From UHGV virus genome UHGV-0097752: a stretch of 19,920 bases of DNA, one strand, 5' to 3'. Shown here in pieces: positions 3,289 to 15,865 of this stretch. The position numbers and the translations under genes are program-made. Position 1 is the stretch's first letter; the number at the start of each line of letters is the position of its first letter. The stretch comes from a virus. A model generated the notes under the pieces. The model had not been told where the DNA came from. It saw only the letters and a list, made by a program, of their open reading frames with translations, and searched no databases.

Positions 3289-4141
3289 TATTGCAACCGT
3301 AACACATTTAAGGCCTTCACAACGGCCTGTGGAGCGTCGTGTGGCAGAAGTTGAAGATGGTTATACCCGTCTTGCAAATGCCCTGTATGAAGAGCTTATC
3401 GGCGCAGATTTAACGAAAAATCAGAGCAAGGTTGCCCACGCCATATGCCGTAAAACATACGGCTACGGTAAAAAGATGGATCGCATCTCTGATAGTCAGT
3501 TAGCTCAAATTACCAGGCTGCCAAGACAGAAGGTAAACAAGGCCAAGAATGAGCTTATCGCGATGAAGGTTATCCTTCGCGAAGGCCAGCAAATCGGGCC
3601 TAACAAGAACATCGAGGAATGGCAAATCGAAGGGTGTCACTACTCTGGTGATAATGTCACTGCATTGGTGACAAAAAGTGTCACCAAAACGGTGACAGCG
3701 CTGTCACCAAAACAGGGACACACAAAAGAAACTATTACAAAAGAAAAAAGAAATAATAAAAACACTATGTCCGAAAGTGTTCGGACGGAGTGTGAAAAAT
3801 CACCTGACCGTCACGAAGAAACCGACAAGGCATTCGAGGAAATATTCTGGTGTGCAGGCATGCGGAAAGCCGGGAAGAAAAACGCAGCTTCGGCATTCAG
3901 AACACAGTTCAGGGAATGGCGTAAAACTACCAGGGGTACGGCAAGCGAGTTTGCCACGATGCTGGCAGAAGACATCGCATGCAGGAATGGTAAGCAGTTC
4001 GGATTCGACAGGTTGTTACCATCGAGCTACCTGAACGGTCAGCGCTGGAACGACGAGAAGCCAGAAACCATTCAACCACAATCCAAACCATCATCCGCAA
4101 TCACCGTATCGAAAACTGGCTACGTGTTTTTCGACAGGTGA
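3281..4141 (+). CDS. O: Replication initiator, lambda O family
   Basis: 286 aa; N-terminal region resembles lambda O ([14 protein letters not shown] ... [41 protein letters not shown] ... GPNKNIEEW); contains an iteron/AT-rich block mid-gene as in lambda. Confidence 0.85.
3647..3765. repeat. Putative origin: GTGACA/TGTCAC-based iterons followed by an AT-rich tract, inside the O gene
   Basis: Repeated GGTGACA...TGTCACC units (3647-3715), then AAAGAAACTATTACAAAAGAAAAAAGAAATAATAAAAACA. Matches the ori-lambda layout of iterons plus an AT-rich unwinding region. Confidence 0.6.
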
Positions 4142-4248
4142 ACCATGAAATCAAAAATCAAATCGCTACTGGTCGCTGGTTATAACCACGGCTGGTTAAG
4201 TATTTCGTTTGTCGATTTCTGGTTTAAAAATCTCAATCTGAGGGAATC

Positions 4249-6129
4249 ATGACGCCAAGTGAACTCAGTGACCTGCTTTGGGCGCAGGTTGACAGGGTGG
4301 CTCCGCACCTGTTGCCAAACGGCAAGAAAGAGGGGCATGAGTGGGTTGCCGGTAACGTCAACGGTGACAAGGGAAACAGCCTTAAGGTCAACCTTAGCGG
4401 CAAGAAAAAATGGGCTGATTTCGCTGAGGGAGACGGCGGTGACATGCTTGATTTGTGGATGGCATGTCGTGGAATTAACCTGCATCAGGCTATGCAGGAA
4501 GCGAAAGCCTTTCTCGGAATCAAGGATGACGATCACCATTTCGATGCCAAACGTGAGAAGAAATTCTCCAGACCTGACCGCAAGAAAATCGCCCGCTACG
4601 TTACCAGAACAGAATCCCATCTTGAGTACCTGCAATCGCGTGGCATATCGCCAGAAGTCGTAAAGCGCTACGAGGTTGTCAGCGGCAAGGTGTGGAATGG
4701 AGAACGGGAACTGGATGCTCTGGTGATTCCGTACAAACGCGATGGTGAGTTGTTGCAGGTCAAGCGAATCAGCACTGAGCGCCCGGACGGGAAGAAAGTC
4801 ATTATGGCAGAAGGTGATTGCGAACCTTGTCTGTTCGGATGGCAGGCTCTGGACGCTGGCGTGAGGGCGGTTGTACTTTGCGAAGGCGAAATTGATTGTA
4901 TGAGCTATGCGCAATACGGCATCTCGGCGTTATCCGTGCCGTTTGGTGGCGGGAAAGGCGCTAAGCAACAGTGGATTGAGTTTGAGTATCACAACCTCGA
5001 CAGGTTTGAGGAAATATTCATCTCGATGGATGTTGATGATGTTGGTCGTGAAGCCGCAAGGGAAATCGCAAGCCGACTCGGTGAACATCGTTGCCGTCTT
5101 GTTACTCTGCCGTACAAAGACATCAACGAATGCCTGATGAACGGTGTTACCGAGGATGAAATCTGGCAGTACATCGGCACGGCATCCTACTTCGATCCTG
5201 AAGAACTCTACAGCGCGCGCGAGTTTTACCAGGACACTATCAACGCTTTCTACGGCAAGCAGCAGTATCTGTTTAATCCACCGTGGGAATCTCTGGCAGA
5301 TAAATTCCAGTTCCGTGAGGCCGAGTTGACGCTGGTCAATGGTGTGAACGGTCACGGAAAAACGGAGGTTGTCGGGCATATGGCACTTGAGGCAATGCGT
5401 CAGGGGGTGAAGACGTGCATCGCGTCACTTGAGCTGAAGCCTGGTATTCTCCTTAAGCGCCTTACCCGTCAGGCAACGTGCTGCAAGATGCCGCCAGTGC
5501 TGGAAATTGACTCTGCATTTAAATTTTATGACGAAAGACTTTGGGTGTTTGGCCTGACCGGAACGGCGAAAGCCGACAGACTGATCGAAATATTCGACTA
5601 CGCTCGCCGCCGATACGGGATCCAGTTATTCATCATCGACAGCCTAATGAAATGTGGCATAGGCGACGATGACTATAACGGGCAGAAGGCGTTTGTTGAC
5701 TCGATTTGCGACTTCAAAAACAAAACAAACTCCCACGTCATTCTCGTTACTCACTCGCGAAAAGGAGACAGCGAAGAAAAACCAACCGGGAAAATGGACG
5801 TAAAAGGCTCTGGAGCGATAACAGACCTGACAGACAACCTTTTCATCATCTGGCGTAACAAGGCTCGCGAGAGAGCGTTACAGAGAGTTCAGAGTGGTGA
5901 AAAGATGTCAGAGAAGGACGAACAGCTACTGGCATCTCCGGCATCTGTTTTGATGCTTGAAAAACAACGTAACGGCGAAGGTTGGGAAGGTGGTGTCCCG
6001 TTGTTCCTTGACGAGCAATCGCACCAGTTCCTGCAACTTGAATCAGGATCGCCATATAGCTACATCGCCAATATGCCGAAATCGGAATATGACGAGGCGT
6101 GGCGACAGGAAAACGTGACGGAGTATTAA
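4249..6129 (+). CDS. Bifunctional primase-helicase (TOPRIM primase domain plus RecA-like helicase domain)
   Basis: 626 aa. TOPRIM-like acidic motifs (VVLCEGEIDCMS, ISMDVDDVGREAA), Walker A GVNGHGKTEV, Walker B-like LFIIDSLMK. Follows O where lambda carries P. Confidence 0.8.
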   Translation: MTPSELSDLLWAQVDRVAPHLLPNGKKEGHEWVAGNVNGDKGNSLKVNLSGKKKWADFAEGDGGDMLDLWMACRGINLHQAMQEAKAFLGIKDDDHHFDAKREKKFSRPDRKKIARYVTRTESHLEYLQSRGISPEVVKRYEVVSGKVWNGERELDALVIPYKRDGELLQVKRISTERPDGKKVIMAEGDCEPCLFGWQALDAGVRAVVLCEGEIDCMSYAQYGISALSVPFGGGKGAKQQWIEFEYHNLDRFEEIFISMDVDDVGREAAREIASRLGEHRCRLVTLPYKDINECLMNGVTEDEIWQYIGTASYFDPEELYSAREFYQDTINAFYGKQQYLFNPPWESLADKFQFREAELTLVNGVNGHGKTEVVGHMALEAMRQGVKTCIASLELKPGILLKRLTRQATCCKMPPVLEIDSAFKFYDERLWVFGLTGTAKADRLIEIFDYARRRYGIQLFIIDSLMKCGIGDDDYNGQKAFVDSICDFKNKTNSHVILVTHSRKGDSEEKPTGKMDVKGSGAITDLTDNLFIIWRNKARERALQRVQSGEKMSEKDEQLLASPASVLMLEKQRNGEGWEGGVPLFLDEQSHQFLQLESGSPYSYIANMPKSEYDEAWRQENVTEY

Positions 6130-6752: not shown

Positions 6753-6917
6753 ATGAGCGCATACGAAGAAATCATGTTAGCCCTGCGATTCTTTTTCGGT
6801 GTGGAAGAAGATGAAAACGTAAATGAGATTATCGGGCAAGACCATGACCCGATAGGGACTATTGCAGCTGCACTTGACGATTACAGGAGCGTAAATGGTG
6901 AGGAAACTAACGTTTGA
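6753..6917 (+). CDS. Small hypothetical protein (54 aa)
   Basis: ATG 6753 three nt after the upstream stop with GGAG RBS; MSAYEEIMLALRFFFGVEEDENVNEIIGQDHDPIGTIAAALDDYRSVNGEETNV; overlaps the ninB start. Confidence 0.4.
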   Translation: MSAYEEIMLALRFFFGVEEDENVNEIIGQDHDPIGTIAAALDDYRSVNGEETNV

Positions 6918-7338
6918 ACTAAGAAGCCCCATCCATCAGCAGAACGCCATTCAAGCTATCCAGCAAATCCTTCCAGACCCAACCAAACCAATCGTAGTGA
7001 CCATCCAGGAACGCAACCGCAGCTTAGACCAAAATCGGAAGCTTTGGGCTTGCCTTGGTGACGTCTCTCGTCAGGTTGAATGGCATGGTCGCTGGCTGGA
7101 TGCAGAAAGCTGGAAGTGTGTGTTTACCGCAGCATTAAAGCAGCAGGACGTTGTTCCTAACCTTGCCGGGAATGGCTTTGTGGTAATAGGCCAGTCAACC
7201 AGCAGGATGCGTGTAAGCGAATTTGCGGAGTTATTAGAGCTTATACAGGCATTCGGTACAGAGCGTGGCGTTAAGTGGTCAGACGAAGCTCGACTGGCTC
7301 TGGAGTGGAAAGCGAGATGGGGAGACAGGGCTGCATGA
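6895..7338 (+). CDS. ninB: NinB (Orf-family recombination mediator)
   Basis: 147 aa, near-identical to lambda NinB as recalled (QQILPDPTKPIVVTIQERNRSLDQNRKLWACLGDVSRQVEWHGRWLDAESWKCVF...). Confidence 0.9.
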   Translation: MVRKLTFELRSPIHQQNAIQAIQQILPDPTKPIVVTIQERNRSLDQNRKLWACLGDVSRQVEWHGRWLDAESWKCVFTAALKQQDVVPNLAGNGFVVIGQSTSRMRVSEFAELLELIQAFGTERGVKWSDEARLALEWKARWGDRAA

Positions 7339-8207
7339 TAAATGTCGTTAGTTTCTCCGGTGGCAGGACGTCAGCATATTTGCTCTGGCTAATGGAGCAA
7401 AAGCGACGGGCAGGTAAAGACGTGCATTACGTTTTCATGGATACAGGTTGTGAACATCCAATGACATATCGGTTTGTCAGGGAAGTTGTGAAGTTCTGGG
7501 ATATACCGCTCACCGTATTGCAGGTTGATATCAACCCGGAGCTTGGACAGCCAAATGGTTATACGGTATGGGAACCAAAGGATATTCAGACGCGAATGCC
7601 TGTTCTGAAGCCATTTATCGATATGGTAAAGAAATATGGCACTCCATACGTCGGCGGCGCGTTCTGCACTGACAGATTAAAACTCGTTCCCTTCACCAAA
7701 TACTGTGATGACCATTTCGGGCGAGGGAATTACACCACGTGGATTGGCATCAGAGCTGATGAACCGAAGCGGCTAAAGCCAAAGCCTGGAATCAGATATC
7801 TTGCTGAACTGTCAGACTTTGAGAAGGAAGATATCCTCGCATGGTGGAAGCAACAACCATTCGATTTGCAAATACCGGAACATCTCGGTAACTGCATATT
7901 CTGCATTAAAAAATCAACGCAAAAAATCGGACTTGCCTGCAAAGATGAGGAGGGATTGCAGCGTGTTTTTAATGAGGTCATCACGGGATCCCATGTGCGT
8001 GACGGACATCGGGAAACGCCAAAGGAGATTATGTACCGAGGAAGAATGTCGCTGGACGGTATCGCGAAAATGTATTCAGAAAATGATTATCAAGCCCTGT
8101 ATCAGGACATGGTACGAGCTAAAAGATTCGATACCGGCTCTTGTTCTGAGTCATGCGAAATATTTGGAGGGCAGCTTGATTTCGACTTCGGGAGGGAAGC
8201 TGCATGA
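7335..8207 (+). CDS. ninC: NinC (PAPS-reductase-like)
   Basis: Start at ATG 7335 (ATGA overlap with the ninB stop), [22 protein letters not shown]... The 310-aa track ORF has an upstream in-frame extension I do not consider translated. Confidence 0.9.
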
Positions 8208-8377
8208 TGCGATGTTATCGGTGCGGTGAATGCAAAGAAGATAACCGCTTCCGACCAAATCAACCTTACTGGAATCGATGGTGTCTCCGATGTGAAAGAA
8301 CACCAACAGGGGTGTTACCACTACCGCAGGAAAAGGAGGACGTGTGGCGAGACAGCGACGAAGTATCACCGACATAA
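8204..8377 (+). CDS. ninD: NinD (small Cys-rich zinc-ribbon-like protein)
   Basis: 57-aa [60 protein letters not shown]; ATGA overlap with the ninC stop; below the track length cut-off. Confidence 0.75.
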
Positions 8378-8520
8378 TCTGCGAAAACTGCAAATACCTT
8401 CCAACGAAGCGCTCCAGAAATAAACGCAAGCCAATCCCAAAAGAATCTGACGTAAAAACCTTCAATTACACAGCTCACCTGTGGGATATCCGGTGGCTAA
8501 GACATCGTGCGAGGAAATGA
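8344..8520 (+). CDS. ninE: NinE
   Basis: GTG start with AGGAGGA RBS; (M)[57 protein letters not shown], lambda NinE-like as recalled. Confidence 0.7.
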
Positions 8521-8885
8521 CAATGGATTATTCACAGTTAAGTGATTTTGAAATTAACTTAAAAGTCGCGCATATCGTGCTAGGAAAAAACAATTACGAC
8601 TGGGATCCAGAAAAGAAAGAAGTTTACTTGGCTGGAATTGATGGTGGTGAGTTTTTGCCTTGCGGATATTTCGACCCATGTAATATGGCCGCTGACGCAT
8701 ATCCGATCATCACTGAAAACAAAATTAGCACCATGTGGATGACAGCGGAAAAAGAATGGTGCGCATGGTCAGGAGGTGATTTAGAGGAAGGTTGTTGGGT
8801 TCCTGACTACTGCTTCTGCGGTGAATCGCCTCTCCGCGCCGCCATGATTGTCTTTCTCATGATGCAGGTCGCTAATAATGCTTAG
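8517..8885 (+). CDS. NinX-like protein (family assignment tentative)
   Basis: Likely start at ATG 8517 (ATGA overlap with the ninE stop), [44 protein letters not shown]...; common in nin regions of enterobacterial lambdoid prophages as recalled. Confidence 0.6.
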
Positions 8886-9054
8886 CCCATCCCAATCCCT
8901 TCAATACCAGAAAGAAAGCGTCGAGCGAGCTTTAACGTGCGCTAACTGCGGTCAGAAGCTGCATGTGCTGGAAGTTCACGTGTGTGAGCACTGCTGCGCA
9001 GAACTGATGAGCGATCCGAATAGCTCAATGTACGAGGAAGAAGACGATGAGTGA
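8878..9054 (+). CDS. ninF: NinF
   Basis: 58-aa [61 protein letters not shown], lambda NinF-like as recalled. Confidence 0.75.
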   Translation: MLSPSQSLQYQKESVERALTCANCGQKLHVLEVHVCEHCCAELMSDPNSSMYEEEDDE

Positions 9055-9556
9055 TGTTAAAGAAAAAGATATCCCCGGCTTTGAGGGTATATATAAAGTA
9101 ACTGAAAATGGAGACATCATTTCATGCCGTAAATCAAAAAAATTATCTCATGGCATTAAACTAGGAGGATATGCATTTGTCGGTCTGTATCCAGGTGGCG
9201 GGAAAAGACCATCATATAAAATGGTTCACAGAATTGTTGCAGAAGTATTTATTGATAACCCAGATGGCAAACCGGAAGTTAATCACAAGGATGGAAATAA
9301 ACTTAATAATAAAGTTGAAAATCTTGAGTGGGTAACGCGAACAGAAAATGCGAAACATGGATTTGATTCCGGATTGCTTGTTCATGGGTTTAATCATCAC
9401 TTCTGCAAACTAACGCCAGAACAAGTGAAATCAATATATAAATCAAAAGGCAAATACAGAGATATAGCCAAAGAATTTGGTGTTTGTGCGCAGACAGTGT
9501 GCAACATAAAAAACAAATCAGCGTACCGACGTTTTTTGGAGGGGATTGATGTTTAG
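9047..9556 (+). CDS. HNH homing-endonuclease-like protein (NUMOD4-like N-terminus, HNH_3 core, C-terminal HTH)
   Basis: 169 aa; GFEGIYKVTENGDIIS (NUMOD4-like), HRIVAEVFIDNPDGKPEVNHKDGNKLNNKVENLEWVTRTENAKHG (HNH_3-like), C-terminal KSKGKYRDIAKEFGVCAQTVCNI (HTH-like). Visibly more AT-rich than the flanking nin genes. Confidence 0.8.
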   Translation: MSDVKEKDIPGFEGIYKVTENGDIISCRKSKKLSHGIKLGGYAFVGLYPGGGKRPSYKMVHRIVAEVFIDNPDGKPEVNHKDGNKLNNKVENLEWVTRTENAKHGFDSGLLVHGFNHHFCKLTPEQVKSIYKSKGKYRDIAKEFGVCAQTVCNIKNKSAYRRFLEGIDV

Positions 9557-9824
9557 AAGCAAAAAATGGCTTCAGGCAGTCAGGGATATTGAATTTTGCG
9601 TTCTTTGCGGAAGATACGGAGTTCAGGCCGCTCACAGAAATGAAGGGAAGGGGGTTGGGATTAAAGTAGATGATTGCCTTACTGCTGCGCTATGTGTTGA
9701 TTGTCATTCAAGAATTGATAATGGGAGAGATATGAGCAGGGAAGAGCGAAGGGCTGAAATGGATCGGGCCATTGTGCTTACCCTTAAAAAATTGGTTAAC
9801 AATGGGAGGGTGTTTGTCCAATGA
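9549..9824 (+). CDS. DUF1364-family (YbcO-like) putative zinc-binding nuclease
   Basis: ATG 9549 with GGAGG RBS; KKWLQAVRDIEFCVLCGRYGVQAAHRNEGKG...CLTAALCVDCHSRIDNG; sits immediately upstream of rusA as in DLP12-type nin regions. Confidence 0.7.
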   Translation: MFRSKKWLQAVRDIEFCVLCGRYGVQAAHRNEGKGVGIKVDDCLTAALCVDCHSRIDNGRDMSREERRAEMDRAIVLTLKKLVNNGRVFVQ

Positions 9825-10183
9825 ACGAATATCAGTTTGTGCTTCCATACCCGCCGTCGGTGAATACCTACTGGCGAAGACGGGGAAGCCAATACTACAT
9901 CAGCGATAAAGGCCAGAAATACCGAAAAGACGTTCAGCAAATCATCCGCCAACTTAAGTTAGACATTTTCACCAAATCACGACTCCGCATCAAAGTCATC
10001 GCAGACGTTCCAGACTCCCGCCGCCGCGACCTCGACAACATCCTGAAAGGTTTACTCGACTCCCTTATCCACGCCGGATTTGCGGAAGACGACGAGCAAT
10101 TCGATGACATTCGCGTAATTCGTGGCGTGAAAGTACCAGGCGGAAGGCTTGGAATAAAAATCACCGAACTGGAGAACGCATGA
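9821..10183 (+). CDS. rusA: RusA Holliday-junction resolvase
   Basis: 120 aa; LPYPPSVNTYWRRRG ... DSRRRDLDNILKGLLDSLIHAGF ... GGRLGIKITE, matching the RusA family pattern. Confidence 0.9.
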   Translation: MNEYQFVLPYPPSVNTYWRRRGSQYYISDKGQKYRKDVQQIIRQLKLDIFTKSRLRIKVIADVPDSRRRDLDNILKGLLDSLIHAGFAEDDEQFDDIRVIRGVKVPGGRLGIKITELENA

Positions 10184-10368
10184 ACGCCACAATTCAAACG
10201 ATACCAGAGCTTCTTATCCAGACACGAGGTAATCAGACCGAAGTGGCGAGGATGCTTTCCTGTGCAAGAGGAACAGTGCTCAAGTACAACCGAGACAGCA
10301 AAGGTGAGCGTCACGTAATAGTTAACGGCGTCCTGATGGTCAAACAGGGCAAGAGGGGTAGACCATGA
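10180..10368 (+). CDS. ninH: NinH
   Basis: 62 aa; TIPELLIQTRGNQTEVARMLSCARGTVLKYNRDSKGERHVIVNGVLMV resembles lambda NinH as recalled. Confidence 0.8.
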   Translation: MNATIQTIPELLIQTRGNQTEVARMLSCARGTVLKYNRDSKGERHVIVNGVLMVKQGKRGRP

Positions 10369-10883
10369 GCATAAGAGAACTAAACCTCACCAAAGAACAG
10401 CACGATTGGCTGAATGGCTGGCTTGAACTGTGGGGTGCATGGGTTTACTCAGGTCGCCTGGAAAAGCGCATGAGCAGCGTAATAGCGAAGTTCATGGAGA
10501 GCGTAGAGCCGGGAAGAGTTATGACAAGGCCAATGTGTAATGATGATGATGGAATGTTGATTTCTCAGGTCGTCGATTCCGTCATGTACATTGACAAGAA
10601 AGCCTTTGGCATCCTCCTCAGCTACTACGCTCATGGTTCATCTAAGCGAGCAATTGCATCCTACTATCACGCGACTGCAAAGCCACGCAAGATGTGTGGA
10701 CGTGGTGGCGAGGGATGGAGAAAACCTTCACTGGCAACCTGTAGAAACGAAATTGACGACATCCTGAAAGCGTCGTTATTTGTTTTGTACCAGCCAATGC
10801 AAAATGCTTTCAAAATGCGTAAACGTGTTGAGAAAGTTAAGCATGTTGCTGTTAAAAGCCTTGACATGCAATTAGCCATTTAG
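10365..10883 (+). CDS. Q: Late-gene antiterminator Q (phage 82/21-type Q family)
   Basis: 172 aa; WLELWGAWVYSG and RPMCNDDDGMLISQVVDSV motifs typical of Phage_antitermQ proteins; directly upstream of a strong promoter and the lysis genes. Confidence 0.8.
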   Translation: MSIRELNLTKEQHDWLNGWLELWGAWVYSGRLEKRMSSVIAKFMESVEPGRVMTRPMCNDDDGMLISQVVDSVMYIDKKAFGILLSYYAHGSSKRAIASYYHATAKPRKMCGRGGEGWRKPSLATCRNEIDDILKASLFVLYQPMQNAFKMRKRVEKVKHVAVKSLDMQLAI

Positions 10884-10889
10884 CCATAA
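10861..10889 (+). promoter_or_regulatory. pR'-like late promoter (TTGACA-17 nt-CATAAT) overlapping the Q stop
   Basis: TTGACA at 10861-10866 and CATAAT at 10884-10889, 17-nt spacer; position matches lambdoid pR'/qut. Confidence 0.5.
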
Positions 10890-10900
10890 TTAGCAGGTAA

Positions 10901-10945: not shown

Positions 10946-11020
10946 GGGTCAGTCGTATAAAGGTCATTACGGAAGGCTGTTAACCTTCTTATCGTGGTTC
11001 GAGTCCACGCTGTCCCGCCA
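10946..11020 (+). tRNA. tRNA-Asn (anticodon GTT), phage-encoded
   Basis: Hand-folded cloverleaf: acceptor GGGTCAG/CTGTCCC (one T-T mismatch), anticodon stem GAAGG/CCTTC with loop CTGTTAA, T-arm CGTGG-TTCGAGT-CCACG, discriminator G, encoded CCA. D-stem has only 3 bp. Confidence 0.6.
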
Positions 11021-11025
11021 AATAT

Positions 11026-11101
11026 GCTGGTTTAGCTCCAATGGTAGAGCGGTCGCCTTGTAAGCGAATGGGTAGCGGTTCAAGTCCGTTAACCAGCACC
11101 A
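11026..11101 (+). tRNA. tRNA-Thr (anticodon TGT), phage-encoded
   Basis: Hand-folded cloverleaf: perfect 7-bp acceptor GCTGGTT/AACCAGC, D-arm GCTC-CAATGGTA-GAGC, anticodon loop CTTGTAA (stem has one G-A mismatch), T-arm AGCGG-TTCAAGT-CCGTT, discriminator A, encoded CCA. Confidence 0.65.
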
Positions 11102-13164: not shown

Positions 13165-13515
13165 ATGCCCCCACGAACCCCAAAAGCCTGCCGTGTTCGC
13201 GGCTGCCGCCATACCACCACTGACCCGTCAGGCTATTGCGAAAGCCACAAAAGCGAAGGCTGGAAGCAATACAAACCTGGACAATCCCGTCATCAGCGCG
13301 GCTACGGTTCGAAGTGGGACAGTATCCGCGCGCGTGTCCTGAAGCGTGACAAAGGCCTGTGTCAGTTATGTCTGCGTGCTGGTGTGGTGCGTGAGGCGAA
13401 AACCGTTGACCACATCATCCCTAAAGCGCATGGCGGCACTGATGCCGACAGTAATCTGCAGAGTCTGTGCTGGCCGTGCCATAAGGCGAAGACGGCCCGT
13501 GAACGGTTAAAGTGA
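13165..13515 (+). CDS. HNH endonuclease (terminase-associated type)
   Basis: 116 aa; Cys/His-rich with DHIIPKAHGGTDADSNLQSLCWPCHKAK; sits immediately upstream of the terminase small subunit, as in HK97-type cos packaging modules. Confidence 0.85.
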   Translation: MPPRTPKACRVRGCRHTTTDPSGYCESHKSEGWKQYKPGQSRHQRGYGSKWDSIRARVLKRDKGLCQLCLRAGVVREAKTVDHIIPKAHGGTDADSNLQSLCWPCHKAKTARERLK

Positions 13516-13630: not shown

Positions 13631-13640
13631 AGTGCCGCAT

Positions 13641-14135
13641 ATGGCTGGAACGGCGGGGCGTTCCGGGCGTCGCCCCAAGCCAACGGCGCGCAAGGCGCTG
13701 GCCGGAAACCCCGGCAAGCGAGCCCTGAACAAAGATGAACCTGTTTTTACGCCCATCAAAGGTGTTGAGCCACCGGAGTGGTTCGCTGAAGAAGATCTCC
13801 CTCTCGCCACGATCATGTGGCAACTGACAACCAAAGAACTCTGCGGTCAGGGCCTGCTGTGCGTGACTGACCTCGCGGTGCTTGAGCGGTGGTGCGTGGC
13901 CTATGAGTTCTGGCGACGTGCCGTGAAAAATATTGCCATACAGGGCAACACCATCACCGGTGCAATGGGCGGCAGGGTCAAAAATCCGGAGCTGACCGCC
14001 AAAAAAGAACAGGAGTCCGAGATGAGCAGCACGGGGGCAATGCTCGGACTCGACCCCAGCAGCCGCCAGCGTCTGATTGGCCTGGCGGGGCAGAAGAAAG
14101 CCACTAACCCGTTTCTGAAAATCATCGAATCATGA
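13641..14135 (+). CDS. Terminase small subunit (P27 family)
   Basis: [14 protein letters not shown]... N-terminus typical of P27-family TerS; ATG 13641 preferred (AGGAG 8 nt upstream) over the GTG at 13632 in the track; ATGA overlap with the TerL start. Confidence 0.85.
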
Positions 14136-15865
14136 GCCGGAAATCTTACCCCAACGTAAATGCTGCCAATCAGTATGCCCGTGATGTCGTGCGCGGAAAG
14201 ATTGTGGCCTGCCAGTTTGTGATTCAGGCCTGCCAGCGCCATCTTGATGACCTGATGGCGGAAAAAAGTAAGTCGTTTCGTTACCGCTTCGACAAGGACC
14301 TGGCTGAACGGGCCGCGAAATTTATTCAGCTGTTGCCGCACACCAAGGGGGAGTGGGCATTCAAACGGATGCCCATCACGCTGGAGCCGTGGCAGCTATT
14401 TGTGATCTGCTGTGCGTTTGGCTGGGTCAATAAAGGCACCCGGTTGCGCCGCTTCCGGGAGGTGTACACCGAAATCCCCCGTAAGAACGGCAAATCAGCA
14501 ATCTCTGCCGGTGTTGCCCTGTATTGTTTTGCCTGTGATAACGAGTTTGGCGCGGAAGTGTATTCCGGTGCCACGACAGAGAAACAGGCGTGGGAAGTCT
14601 TTCGCCCGGCGCGACTGATGTGTAAACGCACACCCATGCTGACGGAAGCGTTCGGGATTGAGGTTAACGCCTCAAACATGAACCGTCCGGAGGATGGTGC
14701 GCGTTTTGAACCGCTGATCGGTAACCCCGGTGATGGTTCATCACCCCACTGTGCGGTGGTGGATGAATATCACGAGCACGCCACCGATGCGCTTTACACC
14801 ACGATGCTTACCGGGATGGGGGCGCGACGTCAGCCACTGATGTGGGCTATCACTACCGCCGGGTACAACATTGAGGGGCCGTGCTACGACAAGCGGCGGG
14901 AAGTTATCGAGATGCTCAACGGTTCGGTACCCAACGATGAACTGTTCGGGATCATCTATACCGTTGATGAAGGTGACGACTGGACCGACCCGCAGGTGCT
15001 AGAAAAAGCTAACCCGAATATTGGCGTGTCGGTTTATCGCGAATTTTTGTTAAGTCAGCAGCAGCGTGCGAAAAATAACGCCCGTCTGGCAAACGTCTTT
15101 AAAACAAAACACCTCAATATCTGGGTGTCGGCGCGTTCGGCGTATTTCAACCTGGTGAGCTGGCAGAGCTGCGAGGATAAATCACTGACCCTTGAGCAGT
15201 TCGAGGGGCAGCCGTGCATTCTGGCCTTTGACCTGGCGCGTAAGCTGGATATGAACAGCATGGCGCGACTTTATACCCGCGAGATTGACGGTAAAACGCA
15301 TTACTACAGTGTGGCCCCGCGTTTCTGGGTACCGTATGACACGGTGTACAGCGTCGAGAAAAATGAAGATCGACGGACAGCCGAACGCTTTCAGAAATGG
15401 GTGGAAATGGGCGTTCTGACCGTTACCGATGGTGCGGAGGTGGATTATCGCTACATCCTCGAGGAGGCCAAAGCGGCGAACAAAATCAGCCCGGTCAGTG
15501 AGTCACCCATCGACCCCTTCGGGGCGACCGGGTTGTCACATGACCTTGCTGATGAAGACCTGAACCCCATCACTATCATTCAGAACTACACCAACATGTC
15601 CGACCCGATGAAAGAGCTGGAAGCGGCAATTGAATCGGGGCGCTTTCATCATGATGGCAATCCCATCATGACCTGGTGTATCGGCAACGTGGTCGGCAAA
15701 ACCATTCCGGGTAACGATGATGTGGTGAAGCCCGTCAAAGAGCAGGCGGAAAACAAAATCGATGGTGCAGTTGCGCTGATTATGGCGGTTGGCAGAGCCA
15801 TGCTGTACGAGAAAGAAGACACGCTGTCTGACCACATTGAGTCCTATGGGATCCGCTCGCTTTAA
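14132..15865 (+). CDS. Terminase large subunit
   Basis: 577 aa; Walker A-like [11 protein letters not shown] in the ATPase domain and a C-terminal nuclease-like region with conserved acidic residues; position and size as expected. Confidence 0.9.

Follow-up and report, generated by a model that had tools for sequence, protein, structure and literature searches.

In T-even phages the free-standing homing endonucleases SegF (gene 56), SegG (gene 32) and MobE (nrdB) bring about intronless homing and marker exclusion (PMC2988022). Free-standing genes resembling I-HmuI are found in lactococcal Skunavirus phages, where they form location-specific clades, occur as truncated copies at the same locations and in some cases cause marker exclusion (PMC12724721). 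I-HmuI itself is the intron-encoded homing and nicking enzyme of the Bacillus phage SPO1 (PDB 1U3E), with D74, H75 and N96 as catalytic residues (PMC12724721). In gene 31 of the P22-like phage epsilon34, the N-terminus of eaE is fused in frame to an HNH homing endonuclease (PMC2629481). Here we describe an HNH gene of the I-HmuI type in the nin operon of the virus genome UHGV-0097752. The window, by which we mean the whole analysed stretch of 19,920 nt, is a 19.9-kb segment of an HK97/HK022-like lambdoid genome. The HNH gene (9047-9556) is followed by a divergent 91-aa gene of the His-Me-finger group (9549-9824), which we call the D-variant. With a probability of roughly 0.55, we read the HNH gene as a free-standing homing endonuclease of the I-HmuI type that replaces ybcO-type genes and brings along its own substitute gene, the D-variant. 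This reading draws jointly on the domain architecture, the rarity and the foreign composition of the gene, on its strict position and the purifying selection on it, and on the deleted derivatives and the fragments of the presumed target gene.

The protein encoded in the window is of the same length class as I-HmuI (169 versus 174 aa). Both have an N-terminal beta-sheet DNA binder, an HNH core and a C-terminal helix-turn-helix (HTH) in the same order, and the catalytic His and Asn are conserved. In contrast to I-HmuI, the window gene is free-standing in a lambdoid nin operon and overlaps both of its neighbours, the identity is about 30% and D74 is replaced by Asn. As in the T-even systems, the endonuclease gene is intergenic and lies beside a variant allele of a gene that differs, and is presumably sensitive, in relatives without the endonuclease. 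Co-inheritance of neighbouring DNA and a sporadic occurrence among related phages are shared as well (PMC2988022). The T-even enzymes are of GIY-YIG or other HNH types, come from virulent phages and have been proven experimentally, whereas phages of the window type are temperate. In addition, the neighbour in the window is a highly divergent paralogue (about 25% identity) and not a polymorphic allele, and in many relatives of the window HNH gene the endonuclease open reading frame (ORF) carries a fused 5′ fragment of the presumed target. The family of the window gene resembles the Skunavirus genes in its location-tied clades and truncated remnants, whereas host phylum, phage type and neighbouring genes differ and the identity is at most about 40%. 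The epsilon34 gene, a fusion of a resident gene with an HNH gene, parallels the fusions of the ybcO N-terminus in relatives of the window HNH gene; unlike these, it lies in the early left operon and belongs to another HNH lineage, and the window copy itself carries no fusion.

The exchanged unit in the nin operon

The features on which the argument rests are, in order of position:

8878-9054, + strand: ninF, the left flank (Pfam NinF, 47.3 bits)
9004-9846: low-diversity block common to all near-identical copies (the HNH/D-variant cassette with about 43 nt on its left and about 25 nt on its right)
9047-9556, + strand: HNH gene of the I-HmuI type, 169 aa
9065-9190, + strand: predicted NUMOD4 N-terminal beta-strand DNA-binding region (aa 7-48), aligning with I-HmuI from residue 3
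9218-9352, + strand: HNH_3 beta-beta-alpha-metal nuclease core (aa 58-102), by alignment to 1U3E
9407-9544, + strand: predicted C-terminal helical (HTH-like) DNA-binding module (aa 121-166)
9549-9824, + strand: D-variant gene, cysteine-rich, 91 aa
9821-10183, + strand: rusA, the right flank (Pfam RusA, 62 bits)

The window was compared by blastn with the standard arrays of HK620 (ninF-roi-hkbD-rusA) and mEp043 (ninF-gp60-hkbD-rusA). Homology stopped at 9055-9060, by the ninF stop codon, and resumed exactly at 9821, the ATG of rusA, with an identity of 93-97% on the ninF side and of 97.6-97.8% on the rusA-ninH side (9821-10369). The foreign unit therefore consists of two genes, HNH and D-variant. 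Judged from these alignments, the HNH/D-variant cassette holds the place that roi (or a small ORF) and ybcO/hkbD have in most lambdoid phages. A preliminary description of this DNA had proposed the mobile insertion of one gene into a standard nin array. The DNA is indeed foreign and sporadic and most nin regions lack it, but the unit is the gene pair rather than the HNH gene alone. Comparison with nin regions lacking the gene defined the boundaries (HK620 and mEp043; right edge at 9557/9558) and yielded no exact empty site with both flanks.

The HNH gene has a GC content of 36.5% (27.6% at third codon positions), compared with 44-51% in the flanking nin genes, and it is the 510-nt segment with the lowest GC in the 19.9 kb (mean 49.5, standard deviation 4.8). 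The AT-richness noted earlier is thus borne out. The gene is a separate ORF between host genes, outside any intron or intein (no Rfam intron match). Its ATG at 9047 lies in the overlap with the ninF stop (ATGAGTGA, 9047-9054, 8 nt), and its stop codon TAG (9554-9556) overlaps the next gene, which begins with the ATG at 9549 (8 nt). The motif GAGGAAG at 9034-9040, inside ninF, serves as ribosome-binding site for the HNH gene. Both overlaps are as first described, but they had also been taken as a sign of precise insertion, and this does not hold: overlaps of 4-8 nt join each gene to the next from ninX through Q in the window, so that they are a property of the operon and no mark of insertion.

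The slot after ninF is a general mosaic joint. Other phages have roi, ninG or a 70-aa ORF there, and the junction ATGA(G/A)TGA is common to all occupants. This brings up a serious alternative, although we hold it to be unlikely: the cassette may be a passive mosaic module, one of many in nin regions, shuffled by ordinary homologous or illegitimate recombination at gene-boundary sequences, with the nuclease uninvolved and kept for a benefit to the phage or by hitch-hiking. The post-ninF joint that roi, the 70-aa ORF and HNH share, with the same ATGA(G/A)TGA, is in favour of such shuffling, as are edges that fall exactly at gene boundaries with no graded conversion tract.

Domain architecture and predicted fold of the HNH protein

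The NUMOD4 domain (aa 7-48; 29.2 bits, Pfam threshold 23.4) and the HNH_3 domain (aa 58-102; 42.1 bits, threshold 24.8) both scored above threshold, as the preliminary description had expected, and the protein matched the 'HNH endonuclease' family phrog_59 with an expectation value (E) of 5e-50. Pfam gave only a sub-threshold CENP-B_N match (aa 139-157) for the C-terminal HTH. In an AlphaFold (AF2) model built with 32 relatives (mean predicted local distance difference test score 88.7), the N-terminal beta region has strands at residues 6-8, 16-19, 24-26 and 43-47, followed by the beta-beta-alpha core and four C-terminal helices (124-132, 137-144, 148-155 and 161-166). A PDB sequence search (phmmer) returned one real match, I-HmuI 1U3E (E 1.3e-18; aa 6-121 aligned to 3-116). 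Foldseek aligned the model to the same structure over 162 columns of the 169 aa (E 4e-10, template modelling score 0.61), and nothing else in the PDB fell below E 0.001. The predicted HTH is thus upheld by the model helices and the I-HmuI alignment, and the architecture of a free-standing homing endonuclease by the I-HmuI match in both sequence and predicted fold. H80 and N101 correspond to H75 and N96 of I-HmuI and are invariant in the 32 relatives. These results support the view that the gene is intact, encodes an HNH endonuclease of the I-HmuI type (HNH_3 with NUMOD4), a class placed in His-Me finger group 2, and is built like free-standing homing endonuclease genes. RefSeq already lists it as a 'NUMOD4 motif-containing HNH endonuclease', and the enzyme class is well known.

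The D-variant, a distant relative of ybcO-type genes

DUF1364 and DUF968 form one His-Me-finger group of predicted nucleases, with RusA, Q and antirepressor genes as neighbours (PMC5714182, PMC4999995). The D-variant sits in the same slot before rusA or Q as YbcO, HkbD and HK97 gp66 (DUF1364, 3G27) and the DUF968/Ref-like genes, and it shares their AH...CxxCH core. Unlike these genes, it stayed below the Pfam thresholds of both families (18.9-20.5 bits versus 29.9 for YbcO/DUF1364, PF07102, on which HkbD scores 147 bits; 19.7 versus 27.8 for DUF968). It does belong to phrog_131 (E 6e-31), the same PHROG as HkbD. An hhalign comparison with ybcO-type genes gave a probability of 95% (E 3.4e-8) over aa 27-87 only, a span that covers the AH...CxxCH core and leaves the N-terminal 26 residues unaligned; the identity to HkbD is about 25%. 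A PDB sequence search with the D-variant returned chance matches only, whereas HkbD finds the YbcO structure 3G27. By these profile comparisons the D-variant is a distant homologue of ybcO/hkbD/DUF1364; the label DUF1364 given to it earlier is imprecise, as the gene falls short of the Pfam threshold.

In all D-variant lineages the D-variant has its ribosome-binding site within the final HNH codons (FLE), and the junction TTTTTGGAGG-N6-ATGT(T/A)TAG, in which the HNH stop and the D-variant start overlap, is kept. The conserved ribosome-binding site and stop/start overlap indicate that the pair is old and co-adapted. An ancient, co-adapted pair is also what would be expected if the cassette were moved passively by ordinary recombination. 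Independent histories of the two genes were suspected from three lineages of Salmonella, Klebsiella and Citrobacter (L013, L017 and L018), in which the D-variant proteins are 93-97% identical to each other versus 66-72% for the HNH proteins. This was rejected because no breakpoint was found between the genes; the gap arises because the HNH protein evolves faster. In a further Citrobacter contig (L019) the D-variant was called as only 56 aa (4162-4332), with tblastn similarity at 4057-4320 (locus 4057-4332), which may reflect a start-codon or frameshift lesion in the partner gene.

Genomic context and distribution of relatives

Relatives of the HNH gene at 53-75% identity were found in E. coli, Salmonella, Klebsiella aerogenes, Citrobacter koseri, Superficieibacter and metagenomes. 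In all 13 lineages (53-100% identity) a small His-Me-finger gene follows directly 3′ of the HNH gene, with an overlap of 4-14 nt. This partner is a D-variant in nine lineages, a Ref-like gene (RecA_dep_nuc, PF16786) in three, which comprise four distinct HNH proteins (L116, L117, L182 and L184), and a true YbcO in one. The upstream gene varies (ninF, a roi remnant, hypothetical genes of 81, 82 and 100 aa, a DNA methylase or DUF1367), and the gene after the pair is either rusA or Q. Passive shuffling of nin modules leaves unexplained why, in 13 of 13 lineages, the HNH gene has a small His-Me-finger gene directly 3′ of it while the genes on its other side are unrelated.

The constant pairing could also mean that the two proteins act jointly in phage DNA metabolism and are co-inherited for that, for instance as a sequence-specific nickase and a second-strand or structure-specific nuclease feeding RusA/NinB recombination. 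For such a partnership, which we regard as improbable, speak the pairing across three subfamilies of the small gene, the conserved translational coupling and the position of the pair next to rusA in an operon of recombination genes. It is made less likely by the common occurrence of the small gene without HNH (hkbD in 957 genomes; the D-variant in SEN22, HK639 and others). Moreover, the HNH gene can be deleted in frame with the small gene kept: E. coli AH19B041 and one IMG/VR contig (loci L008 and L121) carry an in-frame deletion of 330 nt (window equivalents about 9208-9537) that removes the nuclease core and the HTH and keeps the first 54 codons and the region of coupling to the D-variant. 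Such deleted copies are as expected from the life cycle of homing endonucleases.

The HNH gene itself is rare. At an identity of at least 97.8% at the nucleotide level it was present in two of 50,697 phage records (Louie and Dewey, both P22-like) and in 34 of 5426 complete E. coli genomes, where its place was invariably a nin region. The gene is therefore no constant part of homologous nin regions, nor is their GC content uniform around it, its own being the lowest of the window; these two grounds named in advance for abandoning a mobile origin did not materialise. In the same E. coli genomes the hkbD allele was present in 957 and the D-variant allele of the window in 37, 34 of which also have the HNH gene. 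The three without it (RM8082, DETEC-S565 and NCTC9104) have a different NinF-family gene directly overlapping the D-variant; their identity to the window starts at 9558, so that of the two edges of the HNH-specific DNA they define only the right one (9557/9558). More distant D-variants (65-78% identity) without an HNH gene were found in SEN22, ENT47670, HK639, HK225 and others. A scan of one genome per species found a single close relative, in Superficieibacter, and otherwise generic homologues at 35-45% identity that are of no value for context. The best non-enterobacterial DNA matches of the HNH gene are the Skunavirus genes.

A second serious alternative, to which we give only a small chance, keeps homing and moves the target: the enzyme would cut the D-variant junction or the first D-variant codons of alleles without HNH, the insertion of HNH would split this site, and the ybcO remnants described below would be relics of one old event. 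It fits the constant position of HNH directly 5′ of the D-variant with a conserved junction, and the HNH-less alleles, which are 98.9% identical and diverge exactly from 9557/9558 leftwards. The presence of HNH in 34 of the 37 genomes with the D-variant allele, together with the deleted copies, would be the expected near-fixation followed by decay. On the other hand, empty sites were present in just 3 of 5426 genomes, yet purifying selection on the HNH gene is strong (see below), and relatives also lie upstream of Ref-like and ybcO genes.

Other, unrelated HNH_3-type or HNH genes occur elsewhere in three of the loci: in L008 (4022-4534, downstream of Q), in L011 (2496-3044, between ninE and ninF) and in SEN22 (L187, 166-747, between ninB and ninD). 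Their similarity to the window protein is confined to the HNH core, with an identity of 26-36%. That those of L008 and L011 are transposed copies of the nin-region HNH gene was considered and rejected, as the families are unrelated. Several different free-standing nuclease genes thus populate lambdoid operons of this kind.

Selection and diversity of the cassette

Polymorphism was analysed in 20 near-identical copies (the window, Louie, Dewey, E. coli QML220601 and 16 IMG/VR contigs). In the HNH gene 16 polymorphic sites were synonymous and five nonsynonymous (107 versus 400 sites available), which gives a ratio of nonsynonymous to synonymous polymorphism (pN/pS) of about 0.08, and none of the 20 copies contained a stop codon. 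The gene is thus under purifying selection and, by this pattern, functional rather than decaying. A full I-HmuI-type architecture under such selection is typical of active site-specific enzymes and is difficult to reconcile with a module whose nuclease takes no part in its spread.

Two further readings can be considered together: the HNH gene could be a terminase-associated packaging HNH like HK97 gp74, or a decaying pseudogene. HK97-like phages need an HNH protein for cos cleavage, and one lineage has the internal deletion described above. The packaging role, however, fits the separate gene at 13165-13515 (PF01844), whereas the gene in the nin region lies at a distance of 4 kb and is of the HNH_3/NUMOD4 family; decay is contradicted by the low pN/pS and the 20 copies without stop codons. 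Both readings were rejected on position, family assignment and polymorphism pattern, and we consider them highly improbable.

Nucleotide diversity was 0.0058 in the HNH gene and 0.0038 in the D-variant, compared with 0.041 in the last 60 nt of ninF, 0.024 in rusA and 0.031 in ninH. The cassette is thus 4-8 times less diverse than its flanks (Fisher p = 7e-10 for segregating sites, cassette versus flanks). Along the polymorphism map there were no variable sites from -43 to the HNH start (the last approximately 43 nt of ninF in all cassette-bearing loci), and diversity climbs from about 26 nt into rusA. The near-identical copies span 13 left backgrounds and three Q types. Taken together, the polymorphism data suggest that HNH and D-variant spread recently as a unit. 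A diversity 4-8 times below that of both flanks is again not what passive exchange would predict.

Traces of ybcO-type genes at the junctions

In 17 of 32 aligned relatives, the N-terminus of YbcO/HkbD (M.NLRK.ARGREC.V, 15-17 codons) is joined to the HNH body as an in-frame fusion. The DNA confirms this: the hkbD-type 5′ end present in L010-L012 is 45 nt long, and in L018, L182 and L184 the remnant comes from other ybcO alleles and has 51 nt. In L118 about 150 nt (ybcO codons 1-50) are fused to the HNH gene, which is followed by a complete ybcO gene and rusA (remnant coordinates: L010, 3501-3545; L018, 3501-3551; L118, 922-1075). The HNH copy of the window has no ybcO remnant; its start codon is the ATG within the stop region of ninF. 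Most differences among the remnants are synonymous, and as proteins the remnants are 70% identical versus 64% for the HNH body. Neutral decay of one old ybcO fusion is excluded by these two observations; to judge from the same substitutions, the remnant peptide would be either functional or re-sampled from intact ybcO genes.

A hybrid junction was found in E. coli QML220601, whose HNH gene is 97.8% identical to that of the window. In this strain ninF and roi are followed by nt 1-29 of hkbD, by about 15 nt from the 3′ end of ninF, and then by HNH, D-variant and rusA. This most telling case is a recent junction at a microhomology inside hkbD. It is the expected product of one-sided homologous repair, with the right arm in rusA, and an illegitimate left joint, had a window-like donor served to mend a broken hkbD in a recipient of the HK620 type.

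These traces bear on each of the alternatives. Passive movement of modules leaves unexplained why ybcO 5′ fragments occur in at least three junction classes, one of them recent. If the target were the HNH-less D-variant junction, the recent event in QML220601 should have hit an empty D-variant site, whereas it replaced hkbD. A functional partnership of the two nucleases likewise does not explain the ybcO 5′ remnants.

How the cassette may spread

As a free-standing homing endonuclease, the HNH protein would be translated within the delayed-early PR/nin operon from the ribosome-binding site in ninF, its gene in turn supplying the ribosome-binding site of the next gene. During lytic growth in the presence of a co-infecting or co-resident related phage, the enzyme would bind a long asymmetric site and nick or cut the ybcO/hkbD-type gene of the rival, most likely in its 5′ part. 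Recombinational repair templated by the cassette-bearing genome, with arms in ninF (or the ybcO 5′ end) and rusA (or Q), would then replace the allele of the rival by HNH and D-variant, which amounts to intronless homing or marker exclusion. The flanking ninF and rusA genes are about 97% identical in hkbD-type phages and offer ready homology arms, and the recombination functions NinB/Orf and RusA are encoded in the operon of the HNH gene itself. The D-variant, which differs from ybcO-type genes most in its first approximately 26 residues, would be both the uncut allele and a functional substitute for the destroyed gene.

More tentatively, the cassette may be a natural 'cleave-and-rescue' drive: HNH would destroy the ybcO/hkbD gene of rival phages or prophages, and repair would install the endonuclease gene along with a recoded, uncuttable gene of the same function. 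The ybcO peptide would then be the 5′ 'exon' of the recipient, re-sampled at each homing, and homing endonucleases would be a directed driver of nin mosaicism in temperate phages. This extended version is possible, but we think it less probable than homing as such.

Several observations weigh against homing into ybcO-type genes. Some concern the enzyme: the position of the metal ligand D74 of I-HmuI is Asn (N79) in all 32 relatives, and the window copy has a private change, P39L (C116T, position 9162, relative to the consensus of the 20 near-identical copies), in the conserved KPGGY motif, at a position that is Pro in nearly all of the 32 family members; this change may weaken the copy in the window. 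Others concern the target. The favoured target, the 5′ part of ybcO/hkbD-type genes, is read from junction footprints alone. The junctions lie at different positions (hkbD nt 29-35, 45, 51 and about 150), so that a single cut site with resection cannot explain all of them. The fixed junction at nt 45 of most relatives could come from one ancestral fusion and not from repeated invasions, and the conserved remnant peptide could be functional.

The remaining points concern the exchanged unit. An exact empty site, that is the same ninF allele abutting the same D-variant allele, was not found, and the edges of the cassette coincide with gene boundaries. No co-conversion gradient was found in the flanks, including inside rusA; diversity jumps within 25-45 nt of the edges, and such sharp edges are equally expected from ordinary module exchange at gene-boundary joints. 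Finally, sliding-window DNA identity between lineages revealed no recombination breakpoint between HNH and D-variant, and their ancient, co-adapted junction marks the pair as a stable module, which also fits a functional partnership. Two other searches were negative: the E. coli genomes searched contained no uninvaded counterpart of the L010-type locus (hyp81 followed by an intact hkbD), and the window does not contain the presumed target motif (hkbD nt 13-44), a result that is expected and uninformative.

Surroundings of the cassette in the window

The other genes of the early-right region are:

6895-7338: ninB, in the early-right (nin) operon
7275-8207: PAPS-reductase-domain ORF (phosphoadenosine phosphosulfate reductase), 310 aa, 36 bits, in the slot between ninB and ninE
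8344-8520: ninE
8481-8885: ninX
10180-10368: ninH
10365-10883: Q

The slot between ninB and ninE holds a Dam-type methyltransferase in Louie, Dewey and mEp043, so that the PAPS-reductase ORF is another alternative nin cassette. Further upstream, a 626-aa ORF (4249-6129) fuses Toprim and DnaB-like helicase domains (a primase-helicase similar to ES18 gp61); it is a replication gene and replaces lambda P and a separate helicase loader.

Downstream of Q follow two tRNAs, the lysis genes and an HK97-type packaging and head module. A PR′-like promoter (TTGACA-18-CATAAT, 10861-10890) accompanies Q, and tRNA-Asn(GTT) (10946-11020) and tRNA-Thr(TGT) (11026-11101) lie between Q with this promoter and the lysis genes. 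In Shiga toxin (Stx)-type lambdoid phages tRNAs are frequent in this position between Q and lysis. The two tRNAs were the only hits of an Rfam scan of the window, which found no intron and no riboswitch. A promoter and terminator scan gave nothing specific to the HNH gene, with counts at or below the shuffled expectation. The second HNH gene of the window (13165-13515, 116 aa; Pfam HNH PF01844, 60 bits) is unrelated to the one in the nin region and lies directly 5′ of the terminase ORFs (13632-14135 and 14132-15865), in the position of the packaging HNH of the HK97 gp74 type.

Meaning for temperate phages

The mosaicism of lambdoid phages is usually ascribed to undirected recombination followed by selection. 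In the cassette described here, a nuclease gene travels with a substitute for the gene that it seemingly displaces, and it has left datable footprints in the form of a hybrid junction, fused 5′ remnants and deleted cores. It is probably a selfish homing element of a known kind whose footprints are unusually clear. These footprints make the cassette a good candidate, and one that is easy to test, for mosaicism driven by endonucleases in temperate phages: the carriers Dewey and Louie and the presumed targets HK620, HK97 and HK022 are all in culture, which makes the system accessible to experiment. It would also open a first way to the function of the ybcO/DUF1364 genes, which are uncharacterised. 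Should homing be the true reading, part of the nin mosaicism in the temperate phages and prophages of E. coli, Salmonella, Klebsiella and Citrobacter would be gene conversion driven by endonucleases, as it is in T-even and lactococcal phages.

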